Part shown: one piece after another, positions 28,239 through 47,551 of the stretch
How positions within the stretch are numbered: the first letter of the stretch is position 1
Layout: each line of letters starts with the position of its first letter
Virus record (IMG/VR): IMGVR_UViG_3300028127_000003
Reading direction: 5' to 3' (one strand)
Source: a virus
Length of the DNA stretch: 64,000 nt
Made by a program: the position numbers and the translations under genes
The notes under the pieces: model-generated
The model's input: the letters and a program-made list of their open reading frames with translations, nothing else
Told to the model about the DNA's origin: nothing
Database searches by the model: none

Positions 28239-28463
28239 TTAAAAGTGTCCGTGTTCTTTAACACGTCTTATCATAAGATATGTGTTATATGATACGTTAA
28301 TTTCTGCATATCCTCCTGTAATTGTAGAAGGACAAGATTCTCTAGAAATCCAATAGCTAGGTGGTTCTTTAATTCTTTCTGTTATAAAGTCAAACAGTTT
28401 GTCAATGTCCATGTGATGAACCCATAAGTTCACATGCATACAAGTCATATCCGGATATGCCAT
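28239..28463 (-). CDS. Hypothetical protein
   Basis: 74-aa ORF in operon. Confidence 0.5.
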   Translation of the reverse strand: MAYPDMTCMHVNLWVHHMDIDKLFDFITERIKEPPSYWISRESCPSTITGGYAEINVSYNTYLMIRRVKEHGHF

Positions 28464-28466
28464 AAT

Positions 28467-29420
28467 TTATTCTTTTATTTCGAATCGTTCGCTGTCAAGT
28501 TCTATAGTTTTTTTATCTAAATCATTAGATAATTTTGTTAGGGCCTTGTCAGTATCTTTGTTTACTTCTCTTCCGTAAAAGTCTTTAAATATTTTACGGT
28601 ATATTTGCACAGTAGAATCATAAGGAACTCCAGGTTGAGAATTACTTTCTATAATATACAATTTTCCTTCTTGATCTTCCATTATATCAAAACATATATA
28701 TGGTAAATCTTTAAACTTATCACAGAATTTTTCTATTAGTGTTTTAAATTTTTCAGGAAGAGTTGTAATATCTCTTTTGATATATTTAAAATTCATTTCT
28801 TCTTTTCCGTCACCATCACCTGATTTTGCTTTATCATTTAATGGTTCTCTTTCCATCCAAAAGAAAGCATCTCCTTTAAAGTTAATTATTCTATGCTCTG
28901 ATTTCTTATCTACGAATTCGGAATATACGTCAAATTTAGAATGATCAGCTTTATCCCAATCTTCCTGAGATTTAAAAACCTGAATTCCAATACCTGAATG
29001 TCCTTCAGCTGGCTTTGCAATTAATGGAAAACCAATTTCTAAAGCTTCTTTCTCGTCATGGCATGTTTGTGGAATGTTTTCATCTCCATCGACTATTTTA
29101 TGAAACTCTGCCTTAGATCCAGATTGCTTAATGAATTCTGGTCTATTATATACATTTTCTTTTTTAACTAATCCTTCCTTTAAAAGGGTTTCAACTACTC
29201 CTGAATTATAGGTTAATATAGGATAGTCTGGATTAATATCTATGTCTTTATAATTGTCTTTATTGATTTGTATAAAGAAATTATCTGACGCAAATCCTTT
29301 ATAAGACCACCACCTGTGACCTGAGTCGGGATCAATTGCTAGATAAACTTTAAAAAGATCATTAGTATCTTCGTTTAGGCTTTCGTTAATAAATTGGTTG
29401 AATGATTGTATTTGCTTCAT
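28467..29420 (-). CDS. ATP-grasp ligase (RimK-like) with shared N-terminal leader
   Basis: FPLIAKPAEGHSGIGI, YSEFVD..SEHRI, FDIMED..KLYIIESNSQPG; leader MKQIQSFNQFINE. Confidence 0.8.
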   Translation of the reverse strand: MKQIQSFNQFINESLNEDTNDLFKVYLAIDPDSGHRWWSYKGFASDNFFIQINKDNYKDIDINPDYPILTYNSGVVETLLKEGLVKKENVYNRPEFIKQSGSKAEFHKIVDGDENIPQTCHDEKEALEIGFPLIAKPAEGHSGIGIQVFKSQEDWDKADHSKFDVYSEFVDKKSEHRIINFKGDAFFWMEREPLNDKAKSGDGDGKEEMNFKYIKRDITTLPEKFKTLIEKFCDKFKDLPYICFDIMEDQEGKLYIIESNSQPGVPYDSTVQIYRKIFKDFYGREVNKDTDKALTKLSNDLDKKTIELDSERFEIKE

Positions 29421-29427
29421 ATTCTAT

Positions 29428-30045
29428 TTATCCACTCATCTTACAGAAACTTACAGTAATATACCTTGTTCCTGAAAAAATAGGCTTTGCACCGTGTCTA
29501 TGTGTAATTGCACCTGGGTGTAAAGCTGCCATTCCAACTCTAGGAGGACTAATATTTGCCTTATATAATGGGAAATAAGTTCCACCTCCTGTAAAATCTT
29601 CATTCATTCTAACAACAGTTGTTAAATGGCTATTATCATGGTGAAGAGAAAGGTGCGCTTGTGTTTCTGTAGTATACTTTACAATAAATGTTTCATCTGA
29701 CATAGAATTCCACTGCTTTCCTTCTAAAGTCCAGAACCATATTCCTAATGGCCTAACAAATTCGTTAAGAACCTTTGAGTAAATTTCATTCATCCATACT
29801 TTGTCAATGAGCATGTCGGTTGTTGGATAAAATTCATGTCTATCTACTGTCCATTCTCCTTCAGTTTCACATAGTTCAATTAGATCTTTACAAAACTGTT
29901 CTTTAAATAAAGGAAATACTAAAACACTCGGAGCCGCTTCGTCAACTATGAGTTCATATTCTCCTTTTCTTAAAAGGGGATCGATGTATTTGTCACACCA
30001 TGCATCCCAATCGCTTGCATCTAAAATTTCTACGTATTTTCCCAT
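29428..30045 (-). CDS. 2OG-Fe(II) dioxygenase, procollagen lysyl hydroxylase (PLOD) catalytic-domain-like
   Basis: FPLFKEQFCKDLI...W...PTTD; FIVKY...LSLHHDNS; GGGTYF; LHPGAITHRHGA...GTRYITVSF parallel the PLOD C-terminal domain (HxD...H...R). Confidence 0.8.
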   Translation of the reverse strand: MGKYVEILDASDWDAWCDKYIDPLLRKGEYELIVDEAAPSVLVFPLFKEQFCKDLIELCETEGEWTVDRHEFYPTTDMLIDKVWMNEIYSKVLNEFVRPLGIWFWTLEGKQWNSMSDETFIVKYTTETQAHLSLHHDNSHLTTVVRMNEDFTGGGTYFPLYKANISPPRVGMAALHPGAITHRHGAKPIFSGTRYITVSFCKMSG

Positions 30046-31919
30046 TATTTTACTTTTTCTAATTTAGTTACTTTTTTTTCAACTCCTGATTTTTCAGCGT
30101 ATGTTTCGTTAGCAACTCCTTCTTCTTCTCCATATCTTGACTCTGCTGAGATAGGATAGTCAGGGCTTTCATTATATGCCCAATCTTCTATTCCTAATTC
30201 AATAAATCTAGCGTTGATTTGTTCATTATAATATTGTGCTATTGTTCTAACTCTTCTTTGAATGTCTGCTCTTGATAAATCATGAGTGTTTCTTCCACCT
30301 TGATTATTATAGAGAAATTGAATATAGCTTAGTTTAGGTATTTTACATATCTTAGAATATAGGAAGCTTCTGATCACTAATTCAAAATCATCTGCAATTG
30401 TTAGACTTCTGTTATGTCCTCCTATTTCAAAATAAGTAGATCTTCTCCATGCTCTAACGTGATTTGGAACTCCTACAATATGTCTGATTGTTTTTGGATT
30501 AATATTCTGTTGATTAGCAGGTGACAACATTCTACCTTCATACTCTTCTTCTCTATAAGAACCATATCCTAATGCAAACCCTTCTCCATATCTTTGATTT
30601 TCCCACTCTTCATTTACCTCGGCAGTATCTCCATAAAACATACCACAATCAGGATGTGCCTGTGCAGCATTATGTAAATCTTCTGCACATGTTTTAACCA
30701 ATAAGTCATCATGGTCTAATTCTGCTAGAATATATCCTTTAGCAAGAGAACAACATCTGTATTTAGATTCTCCAATACATCCTCCTGATTTTTCTCTAAA
30801 ATCATACACCTTTACTCTTGGATCTACTAACGCAATTTCTTCTGCTATCTTTAAAGTTTTACCTCCATCGGTGGAATCATTTACTAAAACCCATTCCCAG
30901 TTATTATACGTCTGATCTCTTACGGATCTATATGTGTTCCATAACTTTTCACCAGTATTATATATAGGCGTAAAGAATGAAATCATCTGATCATCTTCTA
31001 GGTTAGAAGGAGATAGAATAGAATTCATTGCTACGGAATATGCAGTGTTTCCTATATTTTCCGTGTTCTCAGAATTAAACCACCTTTTTCTAAATTGGAG
31101 AGGAAGAGAAGCTAGGTTAGGAAACTCTTTCCATGATTCTCCATTTGTAATAATTGCATCAGGATTAAACGACGTAACTGCGTTAATTACTTCACTATCG
31201 TCTTCTAAGTATTTAACGTCTAATTCATCTGCTTCATACGATAAATATTTTATAGACTTTAATTCTGGCTTAGTTTTTCCTATATAAATTATTTTAGGTA
31301 TTTTTGCACTTGGTACTTTTTCTAAATAATTGTAGTGGCATAAAACCTTGTCAATCCATACGAATGAATCACCATGTGTTTTTAATACTTCTTCTATAAA
31401 GAAACCGTCTGCTGCATAATTTGCACTAAACGAATGAGTATCAAATATGCTTCTATTAATAACCATCTGTGCAATGTCAATTTTCTGAAATGCAGTATTT
31501 TCACGACTAGCTACTCTAATTTCTTGTCCGGTAAAATCTCTACCTGCAACTAATTGAGAAACGATATGAACCTGTGCAATTGGAAGATTCTTTATACTCG
31601 CTTTAATAGTTTTGTAAAAGTCTTCGTGTATAATGTTATCATCATCTAGTAAATAGATCCAACCTGATTTGATTGTTCTAATAATATCAGAAACTTCAGG
31701 ATATAATAATCCTCCTCTTTGTCCTTTTACAAAATGTAATTTGACATTGACAGTATCTGTTAAGTTCGAGAGAACCTCTGCATCAATATCCTTTAATGCT
31801 CCTGTATCAAATACAATGTGCCAATTTACTGTTACTCCCTTAGGCGCATTTAATACTCCTTCTTTAATTGTTAAAAGGTTACTTGTTCTGGTACACCTTG
31901 TAATAATATTAATCTTCAT
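30045..31919 (-). CDS. Bi-domain glycosyltransferase (two GT-A/GT2-like domains)
   Basis: N-term WIYLLDDDN; C-term ISFFTPIYNT...WEWVLVNDST...ILAELDHDD...ADDFEL. Confidence 0.82.
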   Translation of the reverse strand: MKINIITRCTRTSNLLTIKEGVLNAPKGVTVNWHIVFDTGALKDIDAEVLSNLTDTVNVKLHFVKGQRGGLLYPEVSDIIRTIKSGWIYLLDDDNIIHEDFYKTIKASIKNLPIAQVHIVSQLVAGRDFTGQEIRVASRENTAFQKIDIAQMVINRSIFDTHSFSANYAADGFFIEEVLKTHGDSFVWIDKVLCHYNYLEKVPSAKIPKIIYIGKTKPELKSIKYLSYEADELDVKYLEDDSEVINAVTSFNPDAIITNGESWKEFPNLASLPLQFRKRWFNSENTENIGNTAYSVAMNSILSPSNLEDDQMISFFTPIYNTGEKLWNTYRSVRDQTYNNWEWVLVNDSTDGGKTLKIAEEIALVDPRVKVYDFREKSGGCIGESKYRCCSLAKGYILAELDHDDLLVKTCAEDLHNAAQAHPDCGMFYGDTAEVNEEWENQRYGEGFALGYGSYREEEYEGRMLSPANQQNINPKTIRHIVGVPNHVRAWRRSTYFEIGGHNRSLTIADDFELVIRSFLYSKICKIPKLSYIQFLYNNQGGRNTHDLSRADIQRRVRTIAQYYNEQINARFIELGIEDWAYNESPDYPISAESRYGEEEGVANETYAEKSGVEKKVTKLEKVK

Positions 31920-31933
31920 ATTTATATTTGTTT

Positions 31934-32866
31934 TTATACGTCAAAAAAGAACATGTGAAAAAATCTAGCATTGTCAATTGCATCTCCAAAATACTGAGTC
32001 GCAGCGTGGATATTTTTAGCATTAAACAAGACTAATCTATTATACACATTTCCTACTTCATCTATTTTTTCAAAATTAGATCCATCGTAAAAATTCATTT
32101 CATTACTATTACCCTTGAATGCATCTATGTATGCTTGGGTTTTTCTTTTATCGTCATCGAATGTATAATCACCCGTGACTTTACTTCTATAGAACGCAGT
32201 TCCAGATGTAGGTGGAGCGTCAGGTGTTAAATATACCATTGCTGCATAAGTTTGATTATCCACGTGATAAACAATCTGTTGATCTGCTGTACAAAATTGA
32301 AATATTCCGTTAGCATACCTGTCGTGATTCCAATTGAATATTGGTTTTCCTATAATTTCTTCTAGTTTTTCTTTAGTTCCATCTAAGATAAATCTTTCAT
32401 TTGCTCTTTGGCCCTTGTGATAATCGGAAGGTGTAAATTCTAAATGGTTCATTGCCCATTCTCTTACAAGGTCAGGATCATTATAAAAATTATCTACTAC
32501 TATAACATCCTTTGATGTATTTGCAAATCCTGAATGATACGATAACCAGTGTCCGATTGGACCTATTGCAGTTTCTCCAATACTAGTATGGATGACTAGT
32601 GTTTTTAGTTTTTTATCAAAAGGAACCTCAATAGTAAATGACATATTCTGATTAGTAAGCTGATTTGAATATACTTCCATTACGTCTTGCCTATCACCTA
32701 AAAATTGAACTTTAAGAGGTTCATTTGACATTGAAAAGCCTAAAGCTTCTCCGCCTATTAATCCAACCCATCCATTAAGAGTATATGTGTCTGTATTCTT
32801 AGTTACGCTTTCCACATAGAATTTTACATTCTTGTTAAACGTATCATGTTTGATTTTATTATCCAT
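31934..32866 (-). CDS. 2OG-Fe(II) oxygenase with N-terminal extra domain
   Basis: IVVDNFY, YHVD (HxD), YAAMVYLTP..SGTAFY, YNRLVLF..IHAA, distal R. Confidence 0.7.
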   Translation of the reverse strand: MDNKIKHDTFNKNVKFYVESVTKNTDTYTLNGWVGLIGGEALGFSMSNEPLKVQFLGDRQDVMEVYSNQLTNQNMSFTIEVPFDKKLKTLVIHTSIGETAIGPIGHWLSYHSGFANTSKDVIVVDNFYNDPDLVREWAMNHLEFTPSDYHKGQRANERFILDGTKEKLEEIIGKPIFNWNHDRYANGIFQFCTADQQIVYHVDNQTYAAMVYLTPDAPPTSGTAFYRSKVTGDYTFDDDKRKTQAYIDAFKGNSNEMNFYDGSNFEKIDEVGNVYNRLVLFNAKNIHAATQYFGDAIDNARFFHMFFFDV

Positions 32867-33014: not shown

Positions 33015-38573
<5,559 letters not shown>

Positions 38574-39489: not shown

Positions 39490-40260
39490 TTAAAAATCCC
39501 ACTTATCTGTAAAGTGACATCTTACGTATGTTGGTCGGTTCATTACTGCTCCGCCTTTATGATTTTCTCTGAATCTTACGTTGAAATCTGAATCTTCACT
39601 TACGTTACCCCAAGTATCTCTCCATAAAACAGATGCAGATGGTTTATGCATAAACAACCAAGGACTCATTACTACTAAACCTTCCTTTATTCTTGTTATG
39701 TTCCACTTTCCTTCAACATCTGGAAGTTCTTCACCATATTCTGTAGAATCTTCAAATGTTTTATCGTCTTTAAATTTCATTACTTCGTTATCGTACCAAG
39801 ATCTGTTAATCCACCAATTAGCGTCAGGGTTTTTATTAAACTCTATCATTAGGTGTAGTGTATGTTCTTCTAATAACATATCGTCTGAATCCATATATGT
39901 AATTAAATTTCCAGTTGCGGCTCCTACTCCTACTCTACGAGGAAAACCTCTATAATATTTGTTGCCTTCTTCGTTTTGCATATATGTACTCATTTCTTTT
40001 GAGTTTCTAGAAACGTATATTAATCTTATGTTATCTTCAGTTTGAAAATGAGCATCATATAGTGACTTTGTTTCCATGCAATTGTCTGCTACTATTATTA
40101 ATTCACAGTTTTTATATAATTGATTTTGAAAACTCTGGACTGCTCTTAAAAATTTAGAATGTGAATCTTTCCTAGATCCTGGATAATTACCAAGATATGA
40201 TTGCATGATAATACTAATCTTTGGCTTTGCAGCCGCTTCAATTACTTCTTTTAATTCCAT
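39490..40260 (-). CDS. Glycosyltransferase family 2-like
   Basis: KISIIMQSYL, ELIIVADN, LITYMDSDD, SEDSDF. Confidence 0.8.
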   Translation of the reverse strand: MELKEVIEAAAKPKISIIMQSYLGNYPGSRKDSHSKFLRAVQSFQNQLYKNCELIIVADNCMETKSLYDAHFQTEDNIRLIYVSRNSKEMSTYMQNEEGNKYYRGFPRRVGVGAATGNLITYMDSDDMLLEEHTLHLMIEFNKNPDANWWINRSWYDNEVMKFKDDKTFEDSTEYGEELPDVEGKWNITRIKEGLVVMSPWLFMHKPSASVLWRDTWGNVSEDSDFNVRFRENHKGGAVMNRPTYVRCHFTDKWDF

Positions 40261-40272
40261 TATTTATTATGT

Positions 40273-41460
40273 TTATTTATATAGGTTTGTTGACCAGTCA
40301 TATTCGTTTGATAGAGCATGTTTTCCTGGTTCAAAAATATTCTCTATTAGTTTTTTATATGTATCTACGATGTTAGGATTTGTTGTAAGATATCTTGAAA
40401 GAACCTTTGTGCTTTTTGCTGTATATTCCTTTTCTATCTCATCATGATGATTTAATACATTCTCTAACATCTTTGCAGCTGACACTGTATCGAATCCTTT
40501 ATAATAATACCCTGCATCCTTTATCATTGTTGCGTTATGAACTAAAGGATATCCAAAATAAAGAGCGTCTAAATATGCATAGTTTAAAGGATTATCCCAT
40601 TGATGTGAAAGAACTATATCCGTTTTCTCAGAAAGAAAATTAGTTACTGGGTACCTTGAGCACATTTTTAATTTACCGGAATGAGTTACATCTAAGTGTT
40701 TAATGGAACTAATAAAGTATTTACTAGATAATAATCTTTTACCACTTCCTACCCAAAATTCATTGAACGCCTTTTTACCCTTTTTTCTGTATAGTTCTTC
40801 TACCATCATGATAAGAGGCATACAATATTTAACTACATTCATATTAGGTTCCATTGAAGATAGGTTCATATCTTCTGCATTCTTGCCTCCTTTATAGAAT
40901 GCGTCTTTCATACCATTTCTGACGTTTTTAGAATTTTCTTCTTTTATAAACTTAGGACTCCATACAAATGGAACCACTTTAACCTTGTCAGCAGAAAGCC
41001 TTCCCATTGTTTGATAGTATGATCTATTTTGATATTCCTGCTGTGGAATAAACCATGCTTCATCGTGGCCATGCGTCCAATTACTTACAGATTCTTTAGA
41101 ATCAAATAAGACTCTTTCCATATCTATAATATAATTATTACCGCAAAAGTATTTAATAATCTTAATTTTAGGATTCTTTTTTCTAACGGCGACTGTTTGC
41201 TCGGTACTAAATGAAGTTCCTAGAAGTATTAATAAATCCGTTGAATTTACTTTATCTGCATATTTATAAATAGGATATTTAGAAGTGTCCCAATCTACCT
41301 TTGACAGATCTTTAACTTTATTACTAGTGTCTAACGCATATACACTATGATCTCCTATTTCAGAAAGAGTTTCAATTAAATTTAATACATTTAATTTGAT
41401 TCCATTTATCCAAAGAGATTCATTATCCTGTTGTAATCCTAGTGTAATTCCAATGTTCAT
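40273..41460 (-). CDS. DUF2827-like putative glycosyltransferase
   Basis: Start moved to MNIGITLG (track start overlaps a terminator); MEPNMNVVK, VLSHQWDNPLNYAYLDALYFGYPLVHNA..AGYYY; family name recalled, not verified. Confidence 0.6.
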   Translation of the reverse strand: MNIGITLGLQQDNESLWINGIKLNVLNLIETLSEIGDHSVYALDTSNKVKDLSKVDWDTSKYPIYKYADKVNSTDLLILLGTSFSTEQTVAVRKKNPKIKIIKYFCGNNYIIDMERVLFDSKESVSNWTHGHDEAWFIPQQEYQNRSYYQTMGRLSADKVKVVPFVWSPKFIKEENSKNVRNGMKDAFYKGGKNAEDMNLSSMEPNMNVVKYCMPLIMMVEELYRKKGKKAFNEFWVGSGKRLLSSKYFISSIKHLDVTHSGKLKMCSRYPVTNFLSEKTDIVLSHQWDNPLNYAYLDALYFGYPLVHNATMIKDAGYYYKGFDTVSAAKMLENVLNHHDEIEKEYTAKSTKVLSRYLTTNPNIVDTYKKLIENIFEPGKHALSNEYDWSTNLYK

Positions 41461-41497
41461 GTTAAACCGATATTTTGTTTTACTATATATTTTAAAT

Positions 41498-41526
41498 AAA
41501 AAAGGCTCCTCTTCCGAGGAGCCTTT
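41498..41526 (-). terminator. Rho-independent terminator
   Basis: AAAGGCTCCTC-TTCC-GAGGAGCCTTT perfect hairpin with U-tract on minus strand. Confidence 0.85.
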
Positions 41527-41569
41527 AATCAATTAAGCATTAAGCTAATAATTTAAACCGAAGTTTAGA

Positions 41570-46711: not shown

Positions 46712-47551
46712 TTATATTAAGTTATCCTTAAATGTTTCAACATAAGAATAAGTATTATCAGATTCGGTATCATCTCCTTGTGTTATTAGATTATGATTAG
46801 TCATATACACTTGCATGTTTTTGAATTGATAATTAATCCATACGTCAACTGGGCCGACAATAGGCAAACCTTCTAATAATTTCTTAGCTCCTTCGTATGT
46901 TAATACATAACCAGATAACCACCATACTCCATTATATAACCGTGATAGATTTTGGGAATGAGGATCCCATGTAAATCCAAATTGATTTGGCAAACTAGAA
47001 AGATACAATAAATCCCAATCATTAGGAAGTTCTTTTTCAAATATGCTTTCTATTTTATCTTGAAATTTATGACAAAATTCAAAGTCATCTTCCATTATGA
47101 GGGTGACTGGTGTTTTATTCTCTACAATTTCTTTCCAAATTCTATAGTGTGAAAATGCGATTCCAGTTTCAGCAGAAGAACATAATATCTTATTATTTCT
47201 TTTTAATTTATTTTTCATTCCGGGAGAAGGATCTATTTCCCAGTGAAATGAAAATGGATATTTGTTAATGTGTATTTTTTTAGAAAACCACTTTATTCTT
47301 TTTCCTTCTATTGCGTCAAAGAATCTTAAATGATCTAGTAATGTTTTACGTCCCTTTAGTTTTTGGGAAGATGCTCTCTTCTCTGCTATTTTTAATCTAT
47401 CTTTCCTGTATGCTAGATGAATAACTACGGTGTCGTCAATATACTTAGTCCATTCAATTCTTTTCTGTCTCTCGAATACTCGTAAGAGTCGAGAGAACCA
47501 TTTTGATGTGGTTCTAGCGACTCTATTAAATCCTTCAAGCCCGTACTTCAT
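46712..47551 (-). CDS. Glycosyltransferase family 25 (COLGALT/LgtB-like)
   Basis: IHLAYRKDR, FFDAIEG, SHYRIWKEIV..LIMEDD, DWDLLYL, GYVLTYEGAKKLL..PVDVWI. Confidence 0.82.
   Translation of the reverse strand: MKYGLEGFNRVARTTSKWFSRLLRVFERQKRIEWTKYIDDTVVIHLAYRKDRLKIAEKRASSQKLKGRKTLLDHLRFFDAIEGKRIKWFSKKIHINKYPFSFHWEIDPSPGMKNKLKRNNKILCSSAETGIAFSHYRIWKEIVENKTPVTLIMEDDFEFCHKFQDKIESIFEKELPNDWDLLYLSSLPNQFGFTWDPHSQNLSRLYNGVWWLSGYVLTYEGAKKLLEGLPIVGPVDVWINYQFKNMQVYMTNHNLITQGDDTESDNTYSYVETFKDNLI

Follow-up and report, generated by a model that had tools for sequence, protein, structure and literature searches.

An open reading frame (ORF) at positions 29428–30045, on the minus strand of a 64,000-nucleotide stretch of IMG/VR virus record IMGVR_UViG_3300028127_000003 (hereafter the window, meaning this stretch at its full length), encodes a protein of 205 amino acids (aa) that, judged by its sequence and its modelled fold, is a genuine lysyl hydroxylase (LH) domain of the PLOD type. 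The window comes from a large tailed, T4-like marine phage, among whose genes are those for a baseplate wedge protein, PhoH and a Peptidase_S74 fibre. We consider it likely, with a probability of roughly 0.65, that the enzyme hydroxylates lysines in a collagen-like fibre of the phage, probably as sugar acceptors, and that its gene is an accessory one.

Prokaryotic collagen-like proteins are generally without hydroxylysine-type modifications according to a 2022 review (PMC8968730), and hydroxylysine glycosylation has been treated as a chemistry of animals and mimivirus (PMC8968730, PMC9546862). A comparative analysis of 2010 predicted bacterial hydroxylases for collagen-like proteins, from other families of 2-oxoglutarate (2OG) oxygenases (PMC2938197). 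No description of a PLOD-type enzyme in a bacteriophage was found in full-text literature searches. New here are the stand-alone LH variant, the interchangeable hydroxylase gene that follows a glycosyltransferase (GT) gene, and the presence/absence polymorphism of the LH gene among related phages.

Assignment of the protein to the lysyl hydroxylases

A sequence-only reading of the window had described the ORF as a stand-alone lysyl-hydroxylase-like catalytic domain whose similarity to PLOD extends beyond the generic oxygenase core, and sequence, fold and trees all agree with this description. The motifs on which it was based are all present in the translation, namely FPLFKEQFCKDLI (residues 44–56), W65...PTTD (74–77), FIVKY (120–124), LHHDNS (134–139), GGGTYF (153–158), LHPGAITHRHGA (175–186) and GTRYITVSF (192–200). 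When the protein was compared with PDB sequences by phmmer, it matched human LH3 over residues 540–736 (E = 2e-25) and the LH domain of mimivirus L230 (E = 1.5e-18), whereas the next match, to a Bacillus prolyl 4-hydroxylase (P4H), had an E-value of 0.29. At only 205 aa, the protein is without the N-terminal GT domains of PLOD, as had been stated. No Pfam model captured the LH domain, the N-terminal part giving a sub-threshold match to PF25238, and the Pfam search yielded no match to PF13640 (P4H-like); since Pfam has no model for the domain, the public annotations of LH relatives are bland.

An AlphaFold model built from an alignment of 26 stand-alone homologues had a mean predicted local distance difference test score (pLDDT) of 94.9. 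In Foldseek searches, this model aligned to LH3 with template modelling (TM) scores of 0.83–0.89, a root-mean-square deviation (rmsd) of 1.7–2.4 Å and 33–35% identity along all 205 aa, and to L230 with TM scores of 0.84–0.85 on the query and 0.88–0.89 on the chain at 28–29% identity; other 2OG oxygenase families, including P4H and prolyl hydroxylase domain (PHD) enzymes, reached TM scores of 0.44–0.62 with an rmsd above 3.5 Å. In BFVD, a library of viral structures, just two entries came near, a Megavirus procollagen-lysine dioxygenase at 0.87 and one 610-aa phage protein at 0.75, and generic phage 2OG oxygenases scored 0.68 at most. Both searches thus set lysyl hydroxylases clearly ahead of the remaining 2OG oxygenases, alignments to LH3 and L230 reaching TM scores of 0.85–0.89 at an rmsd of 1.7–1.8 Å. 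A grouping with generic phage P4H-like oxygenases, which the sequence-only reading had named as the contrary outcome, was seen neither by sequence, nor by fold, nor in the trees described below.

Megablast against phage records gave no match. The exact 205-aa protein was present on 126 public contigs of up to 198 kb, and its 90% cluster had 49 members, of which the full-length ones among those listed were all 205 aa long, indicating that the stand-alone form is not an assembly artefact.

Active site and selection

Residues of the phage enzyme were mapped through the phmmer alignment to LH3, with residue roles taken from PMC6082870 and PMC5802723. The Fe(II) triad H135/D137/H184 aligned with H667/D669/H719 of LH3 and was (nearly) invariant in both homologue alignments, and the 2OG ligands Y124 and R194 aligned with Y656 and R729. 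The protein is accordingly predicted to be a catalytically competent Fe(II)/2OG dioxygenase. As far as residue mapping on LH3 tells, its catalytic core is intact, and its regulatory loop and possibly its dimer mode differ from those of LH3. In LH3, the 2OG pocket comprises Tyr656, Arg729 and Cys691 (PMC6082870), and the capping loop 590–610 is associated with a second Fe site (H595, D597, D611 and H613) plus Arg599 (PMC6082870, PMC5802723). LH domains form tail-to-tail dimers in which Leu715 (L873 in L230) enters an aromatic pocket of F639, Y642, T672 and F673 (PMC6082870, PMC5802723); this Leu is Ile180 in the phage enzyme.

Compared with a 92%-identical LH copy in locus L106, the ratio of nonsynonymous to synonymous substitution rates (dN/dS) was 0.06 at a dS of 0.83, showing that the LH gene is under purifying selection. 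Loss of the gene in close relatives, described below, is what a decaying gene or a non-catalytic remnant might also show; however, all catalytic residues are kept, dN/dS is low, and the length is constant among the members listed, with the exact sequence recurring on many contigs, so that we regard decay as extremely improbable.

Relatives and phylogeny

A profile-free exhaustive search returned 2173 cluster representatives at E ≤1e-3. The closest relatives were proteins of 430–480 aa with an N-terminal GT25 domain, which were 52–60% identical to the query over 96–100% of its length. GT25 is the family of the animal collagen galactosyltransferases. Among approximately 210 representatives, the LH domain was joined to GT25, GT-B or PLOD-GT in most longer proteins; further architectures were GT-B+GT25+LH, GT25+PLOD-GT+LH, PLOD-GT+accessory+LH (the animal type), C39 peptidase+GT25+LH, DUF6445+LH and the stand-alone form.

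Trees of 187 LH domains (FastTree) and of 75 (IQ-TREE) were computed with two cyanophage P4H-type oxygenases as the outgroup. An LH3 orthologue (P0227) and a springtail protein named as PLOD (P0636) serve to identify the PLOD clade in these trees; L230 was compared pairwise and structurally. A PLOD-type clade with 98–99% support united the animal PLODs with marine proteins of about 900 aa that carry GT25, PLOD-GT, accessory and LH domains. The query lay outside this clade in both trees and sat among GT25-LH proteins, in a GT25-LH-dominated clade with 98% support in FastTree and 81–88% in IQ-TREE, within which stand-alone forms appear several separate times. The enzyme is thus separate from the P4H-type enzymes, but it belongs to a sister radiation outside the PLOD/L230 clade. 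Since the outgroup sits on very long branches in both trees, the root is unreliable and the direction of gene transfer is not inferable from it.

Regarding the long marine proteins, marine metagenomes yielded hundreds of them (P0230, P0521–P0635; 830–1000 aa), the largest contig measuring 529 kb, and they grouped with the animal PLODs. Some were binned in archaeal metagenome-assembled genomes; the whole set probably stems from giant viruses. Two other proteins (P0130 and P0167) joined a Peptidase_C39 domain of the bacteriocin-processing type to LH, with a GT25-like stretch between them detected by phmmer, which hints at hydroxylation of exported peptides. In Thiothrix, Thiolinea and other Gammaproteobacteria there is a chromosomal clade of stand-alone LH-like proteins of 207–247 aa with 40–46% identity (L086–L099), for instance in the cultured strain Thiothrix eikelboomii ATCC 49788 (L096:9971–10636).

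Linkage to collagen-like fibre genes

The LH gene stands in a row of genes that begins with a collagen-like fibre gene. The features of the window that bear on its role are as follows.

29428–30045, minus strand: predicted PLOD-type LH-like Fe(II)/2OG dioxygenase, stand-alone, 205 aa (ORF translation, phmmer against PDB, AlphaFold2 model, Foldseek)
30043–30047, minus strand: TAATG overlap, in which the GT stop codon shares one base with the LH ATG
30045–31919, minus strand: GT of the bifunctional type, 624 aa, two GT-A domains (Pfam GT2, AlphaFold2, Foldseek, invariant columns of the GT alignment)
31934–32866, minus strand: DUF6445 protein, 310 aa, probable second 2OG oxygenase (Pfam 4e-15, alignment)
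33015–38573, minus strand: collagen-like fibre, 1852 aa, with a C-terminal Peptidase_S74 chaperone, probable substrate (ORF, Pfam, triplet count)
46712–47551, minus strand: stand-alone GT25 (COLGALT-like), 279 aa, candidate hydroxylysine glycosyltransferase (Pfam PF01755, 2e-18)
28467–29420, minus strand: ATP-grasp protein, 317 aa, 7 nt 3′ of LH, adjoining LH genes in many phages (Pfam)
28239–28463, minus strand: 74-aa ORF that accompanies the ATP-grasp gene 3′ of LH genes (locus comparison)
39490–41532, minus strand: GT2 (39490–40260, 256 aa) and DUF2827 (40273–41532, 419 aa) genes, 5′ of the fibre gene, additional candidates for glycosylation of the fibre

The order is collagen-like fibre, DUF6445, two-domain GT, LH, ATP-grasp and 74-aa ORF. 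The fibre gene is followed by a gap of 148 nt, and the gaps from DUF6445 through the 74-aa ORF are 14, −1, 7 and 3 nt. Because of these short gaps, and because a scan of the window showed no terminator-like site between the DUF6445 gene and the 74-aa ORF, this stretch looks like one transcription unit after the fibre gene. A scan for T4 late-promoter motifs was uninformative (12 found, 12 expected).

The 1852-aa fibre contains 521 G-X-Y triplets, in which Lys occupies Y 119 times and X 9 times and Pro never occupies Y; it has 119 G-X-K-G sites. We asked how often LH genes lie near such fibre genes in 80 viral loci with LH relatives, which fell into 48 non-redundant groups. The loci were collected with the alignment of the GT25-LH family, as that of the diverse stand-alone proteins had no stretch conserved enough for searching. 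ORFs were called by ourselves and taken as collagen-like from 20 triplets upwards, and loci were regarded as informative when their upstream sequence spanned 6 kb or more. Of the 29 informative groups, 16 had a collagen-like ORF upstream of LH and on its strand; on the downstream side, such an ORF was seen in 0 of 38 groups (Fisher p = 6e-8). In some members of one viral group, a small ORF of 24 triplets lay downstream of LH. The linkage extends to two cultured phages from separate families, Synechococcus phage S-CAM9 (L100:4681–6525, 614 aa) and Roseobacter phage CRP-6 (L101:4795–6564, 589 aa), whose LH relatives, annotated as "hypothetical", are 28–30% identical enzymes with GT25 and PLOD-GT by Pfam and an LH-like C-terminus. 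Both come after a collagen-like tail fibre, with three short genes between in S-CAM9 and one in CRP-6, and Lys occupied Y in 22 of 59 triplets of the S-CAM9 fibre and in 26 of 99 of the CRP-6 fibre.

On the other hand, several observations weigh against fibre lysines as the substrate. At 13 of the 29 informative viral loci no collagen gene lay within 10 kb, although 4 of 9 such exceptions checked contig-wide had collagen genes elsewhere. Related phages without LH kept 16–28% Lys in Y (21–28% in the close relatives), including one with a 94%-complete genome. In addition, Lys in Y tracked Asp in the next X position across phage collagens (0.22/0.24, 0.28/0.26 and 0/0), KGD being a known stabilising pair, so that the Lys pattern is not evidence for hydroxylation. 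In 16 genome loci, mostly of Thiothrix and other Gammaproteobacteria, stand-alone bacterial LH genes had neither collagen nor GT genes nearby and were neighboured by housekeeping genes such as RecQ, glycyl-tRNA synthetase (GlyQ), UbiD or PDH, indicating that the LH family is not tied to collagen everywhere. In the enzyme itself, the capping loop is 9 residues shorter than that of LH3, with D597 and R599 deleted, and half of the second Fe site is missing (H70 and D77 are kept, L79 replaces H613). Cys691 of LH3 corresponds to Thr156, a Thr that is invariant across the phage GT25-LH alignment, and the aromatic pocket of the dimer does not appear to be preserved, Y642, T672 and F673 corresponding to K110, H140 and L141.

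An enzyme acting on a substrate other than the fibre, be it a small peptide or some different protein of the virion or the host, would account for the bacterial stand-alone relatives and for the viral loci without a nearby collagen gene, and would suit those relatives in which LH is joined to a C39 peptidase domain of the kind common in peptide export systems, as well as the conserved ATP-grasp gene and 74-aa ORF after LH in many loci. However, such a substrate would leave aside the directional linkage to collagen genes, which extends even to the distant enzymes of the two cultured phages, and the fusions, which are overwhelmingly to transferase families acting on collagen hydroxylysine; we therefore hold it to be rather unlikely, and prefer hydroxylation of the fibre.

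One GT25-LH clade beside the query lineage in the IQ-TREE tree had no collagen within 10 kb (L008, L010, L019, L025, L031, L032 and L041), and a 280–370-aa protein rich in Asp, Glu and Lys recurred 3–7 kb upstream of its GT25-LH genes. The Lys content in Y was also tried as a predictor of LH and failed, since Lys-rich collagens occur without LH. An ATP-grasp gene with an ORF of 74–80 aa stood 3′ of LH or GT25-LH genes in roughly 15–21 of the 48 viral groups. ATP-grasp ligases attach amino acids to proteins; this pair could be another protein-modifying module or merely conserved synteny.

The coupled glycosyltransferase and the variability of its 3′ neighbour

The gene immediately upstream of LH had been read as a translationally coupled, two-domain GT. 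Translational coupling of LH to the GT is plausible because of the TAATG stop/start overlap. The 624-aa protein matched Pfam GT2 at residues 314–455 (E = 6e-18), its AlphaFold2 model (pLDDT 74) had a GT-A-like N-terminal half, and its top Foldseek matches over the whole length were the bifunctional two-GT-A polymerases K4CP and PmHS2 (heparosan synthase 2). The DxD-like motifs DDD (92–94) and DHDD (402–405), one for each GT-A domain, were invariant in the alignment.

From this pair the sequence-only reading had gone on to propose a split LH3/L230-like enzyme. The GT and LH would then be two halves of one enzyme working as an obligate complex, in keeping with the one-base overlap of their genes and with the two domains of the GT, which parallel the GT and accessory domains of LH3. 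However, the GT had no detectable homology to LH3 or GT25: LH3 was not ranked among its Foldseek matches, and profile-profile comparison by hhalign gave a probability of 0.4% against the animal LH3 orthologue and also below 1% against the GT25-LH family, so that the GT does not appear to be the counterpart of PLOD-GT. Nor are the two genes a constant pair, the GT being a widespread gene in its own right. In 80 viral loci anchored on the 624-aa GT, which made up 44 non-redundant groups, 35 groups had DUF6445 as the immediate upstream neighbour of the GT and 28 contained collagen-like genes, whereas a true LH, scoring 282 bits with the LH profile, came after the GT in no lineage but that of the window. 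Nine putative LH genes after the GT had been picked up by an LH hidden Markov model at E <1e-5; seven of them turned out by BLASTP and Pfam to be PF13640 P4H-like enzymes, with scores of 25–31 bits compared with 282.

What stands at the 3′ end of the GT gene varies among related phages. In locus L107 (4855–4905, compared with 29400–30090 of the window), whose GT is 96% identical to that of the window, the junction TAATGGGAAA has been retained, as have the 16 nt that precede the ATP-grasp start. The first 9 nt of LH also remain, about 580 nt of its interior are gone, and an ORF of 12 codons is left. In relatives with 90% and 77% identical GTs, the ATP-grasp gene follows the GT directly with no LH between. 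In more distant relatives, a 196-aa PF13640 P4H-like oxygenase occupies the position of LH and overlaps the GT stop (L111:11847–12434, L116, L121:10946–11533, L124, L164, L169 and L176); compared with these enzymes, the phage LH gave E-values of 0.004–0.06, showing no specific similarity. The deletion scar in L107 and the absence of the gene from the 90% and 77% relatives show that LH is dispensable, an optional accessory with which and without which related phage populations exist. Because either a P4H-like enzyme or a deletion can be found at the same junction, the coupling belongs to the position and not to an LH3-like partnership. Of the proposed split enzyme, the functional logic survives, in that a hydroxylase, sugar transferases and a collagen lie adjacent; gene fission does not, given also that the GT remains intact where LH has been cleanly deleted and that the nearest LH relatives are fused to GT25 and not GT2. 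An obligate two-part enzyme is thus very unlikely.

Regarding the collagens beside the P4H-like enzyme, Pro occupied Y in 0–2% and X in 6–20%. In L176, three 2OG oxygenase ORFs lay close together.

The DUF6445 protein has invariant residues H201, D203, H287 and R301. Since this H-x-D...H...R pattern is typical of 2OG oxygenases, DUF6445 is a probable second 2OG oxygenase, as far as its sequence can tell. It was fused to LH in three proteins (L065, L067 and P0152); it gave no match to PDB sequences, and no Atlas structure was found. The core of the fibre-modification operon is the DUF6445-GT pair, not LH. This pair mostly lay right after collagen-like fibre genes, including those of fibres without any Lys. 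Among L102–L180, the Lys-free fibres were Pro-rich in X and Thr- or Gln-rich in Y, and the two compositional types of fibre share the same DUF6445-GT operon.

GT25 and other transferases of the window

The separate GT25 gene (46712–47551) is located 17 kb from LH among unrelated genes, and its only matches to PDB sequences were COLGALT1 (5e-11) and mimivirus R655. We considered whether it might be the detached half of a GT25-LH fusion and rejected this idea: it matched the fused GT25 domains with E-values of 1e-12 to 1e-18, whereas these matched one another at 1e-25 or better, a divergence too great for a recent fission. The fibre gene has at least four glycosyltransferase genes around it. In other stand-alone LH loci, a GT-B gene lies directly upstream of LH.

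These transferases bear on whether hydroxylysine is an intermediate or the end product, the latter serving helix stability, cross-linking or receptor contact after loss of the fused GT25 partner. In favour of an end product, the LH of the window is without the GT25 domain carried by nearly all close relatives, the separate GT25 is divergent and remote, and the coupled GT occurs without LH in most phages; against it stand the several glycosyltransferase genes near the fibre gene and the GT-B gene upstream of LH in the other stand-alone cases. We judge an end product to be unlikely, and retain hydroxylysine as a probable sugar acceptor.

Proposed role and its implications

The enzyme belongs to the large phage and bacterial LH branch, whose members are mostly fused to GT25, and is a stand-alone form of it here. 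On what it acts, which residue it modifies and where, and how glycosylation might follow, we infer the following course. Inside the infected cell, it would act on new fibre chains before they trimerise, using O2 and 2-oxoglutarate to turn the Y-position Lys of G-X-K-G (119 sites) into hydroxylysine. The new hydroxyl would then probably take sugars from GTs of the phage, either the separate GT25 (46712–47551) or the coupled two-domain GT.

A broader proposition, which we advance tentatively and at somewhat less than even odds, is that tailed phages perform the animal type of collagen chemistry, from lysine via hydroxylysine to glycosyl-hydroxylysine, on collagen-like tail fibres that they themselves encode, by means of modular hydroxylases, namely PLOD-type LH, P4H-like and probably DUF6445 enzymes, which are gained, swapped and lost at a fixed operon position, so that near-identical phages would differ in the decoration of their fibres. 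If this modular reading were true, the clade of animal and giant-virus PLODs would be one branch of a larger phage and bacterial LH radiation. Fibre hydroxylation itself, if true, would mean that receptor-binding fibres of phages can bear a variable hydroxylysine-glycan coat, with a bearing on host range and defence evasion, and the presence/absence polymorphism of LH would provide a natural experiment on the purpose of such a coat. The deep origin of the animal collagen-modifying enzymes could be tested by drawing on a very large sister group from prokaryotes and viruses, and a single-domain LH of 205 aa suited to the bacterial cytoplasm would be a handy tool for the recombinant production of hydroxylated collagen in E. 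coli. For the fused relatives, two phages already in culture, S-CAM9 and Roseobacter phage CRP-6, offer ready experimental systems.

Comparison with known systems

Like human LH3/PLOD3 (PDB 6fxk, 8one; PMC6082870), the phage enzyme is modelled as an N-terminal helical extension followed by a double-stranded beta-helix, and it has in common with LH3 the Fe triad, the Tyr and Arg that bind 2OG, and the motifs HHD, GGG, HPG..TH.H and G.RY..VSF. It differs in being phage-encoded and cytoplasmic, without the GT and accessory domains of PLOD, in the absence of Asp597 and of the substrate mimic Arg599, and in the replacements of His613 by Leu, Cys691 by Thr and Leu715 by Ile.

Mimivirus L230 (PDB 6ax6), a bifunctional collagen lysyl hydroxylase/hydroxylysine glucosyltransferase, is likewise a viral enzyme that occurs alongside virus-encoded collagen-like proteins (PMC5802723, PMC9546862), and an LH domain of about the size of the phage protein folds and is active in E. 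coli (PMC5802723). L230 is, however, an 895-aa GT fusion in a virus of a eukaryote, whereas the LH of the window is a separate 205-aa gene of a tailed phage.

The P4H-type 2OG oxygenases (PF13640) of phages and cyanophages have the same superfamily core and occupy the same position after the GT in related phages, but the LH of the window gives no PF13640 match, resembles them with TM scores of 0.68 at most, and is separated from them by very long outgroup branches. The phage GT25-LH fusions, which are publicly annotated as GT25 ("GT25 LPS biosynthesis") or hypothetical, belong to the same clade as the LH of the window and take the same position, 3′ of a collagen-like fibre gene and 5′ of the ATP-grasp gene and small ORF; the enzyme described here differs from them in being without the GT25 domain and in having a start codon that overlaps the stop of an unrelated two-GT-A gene.

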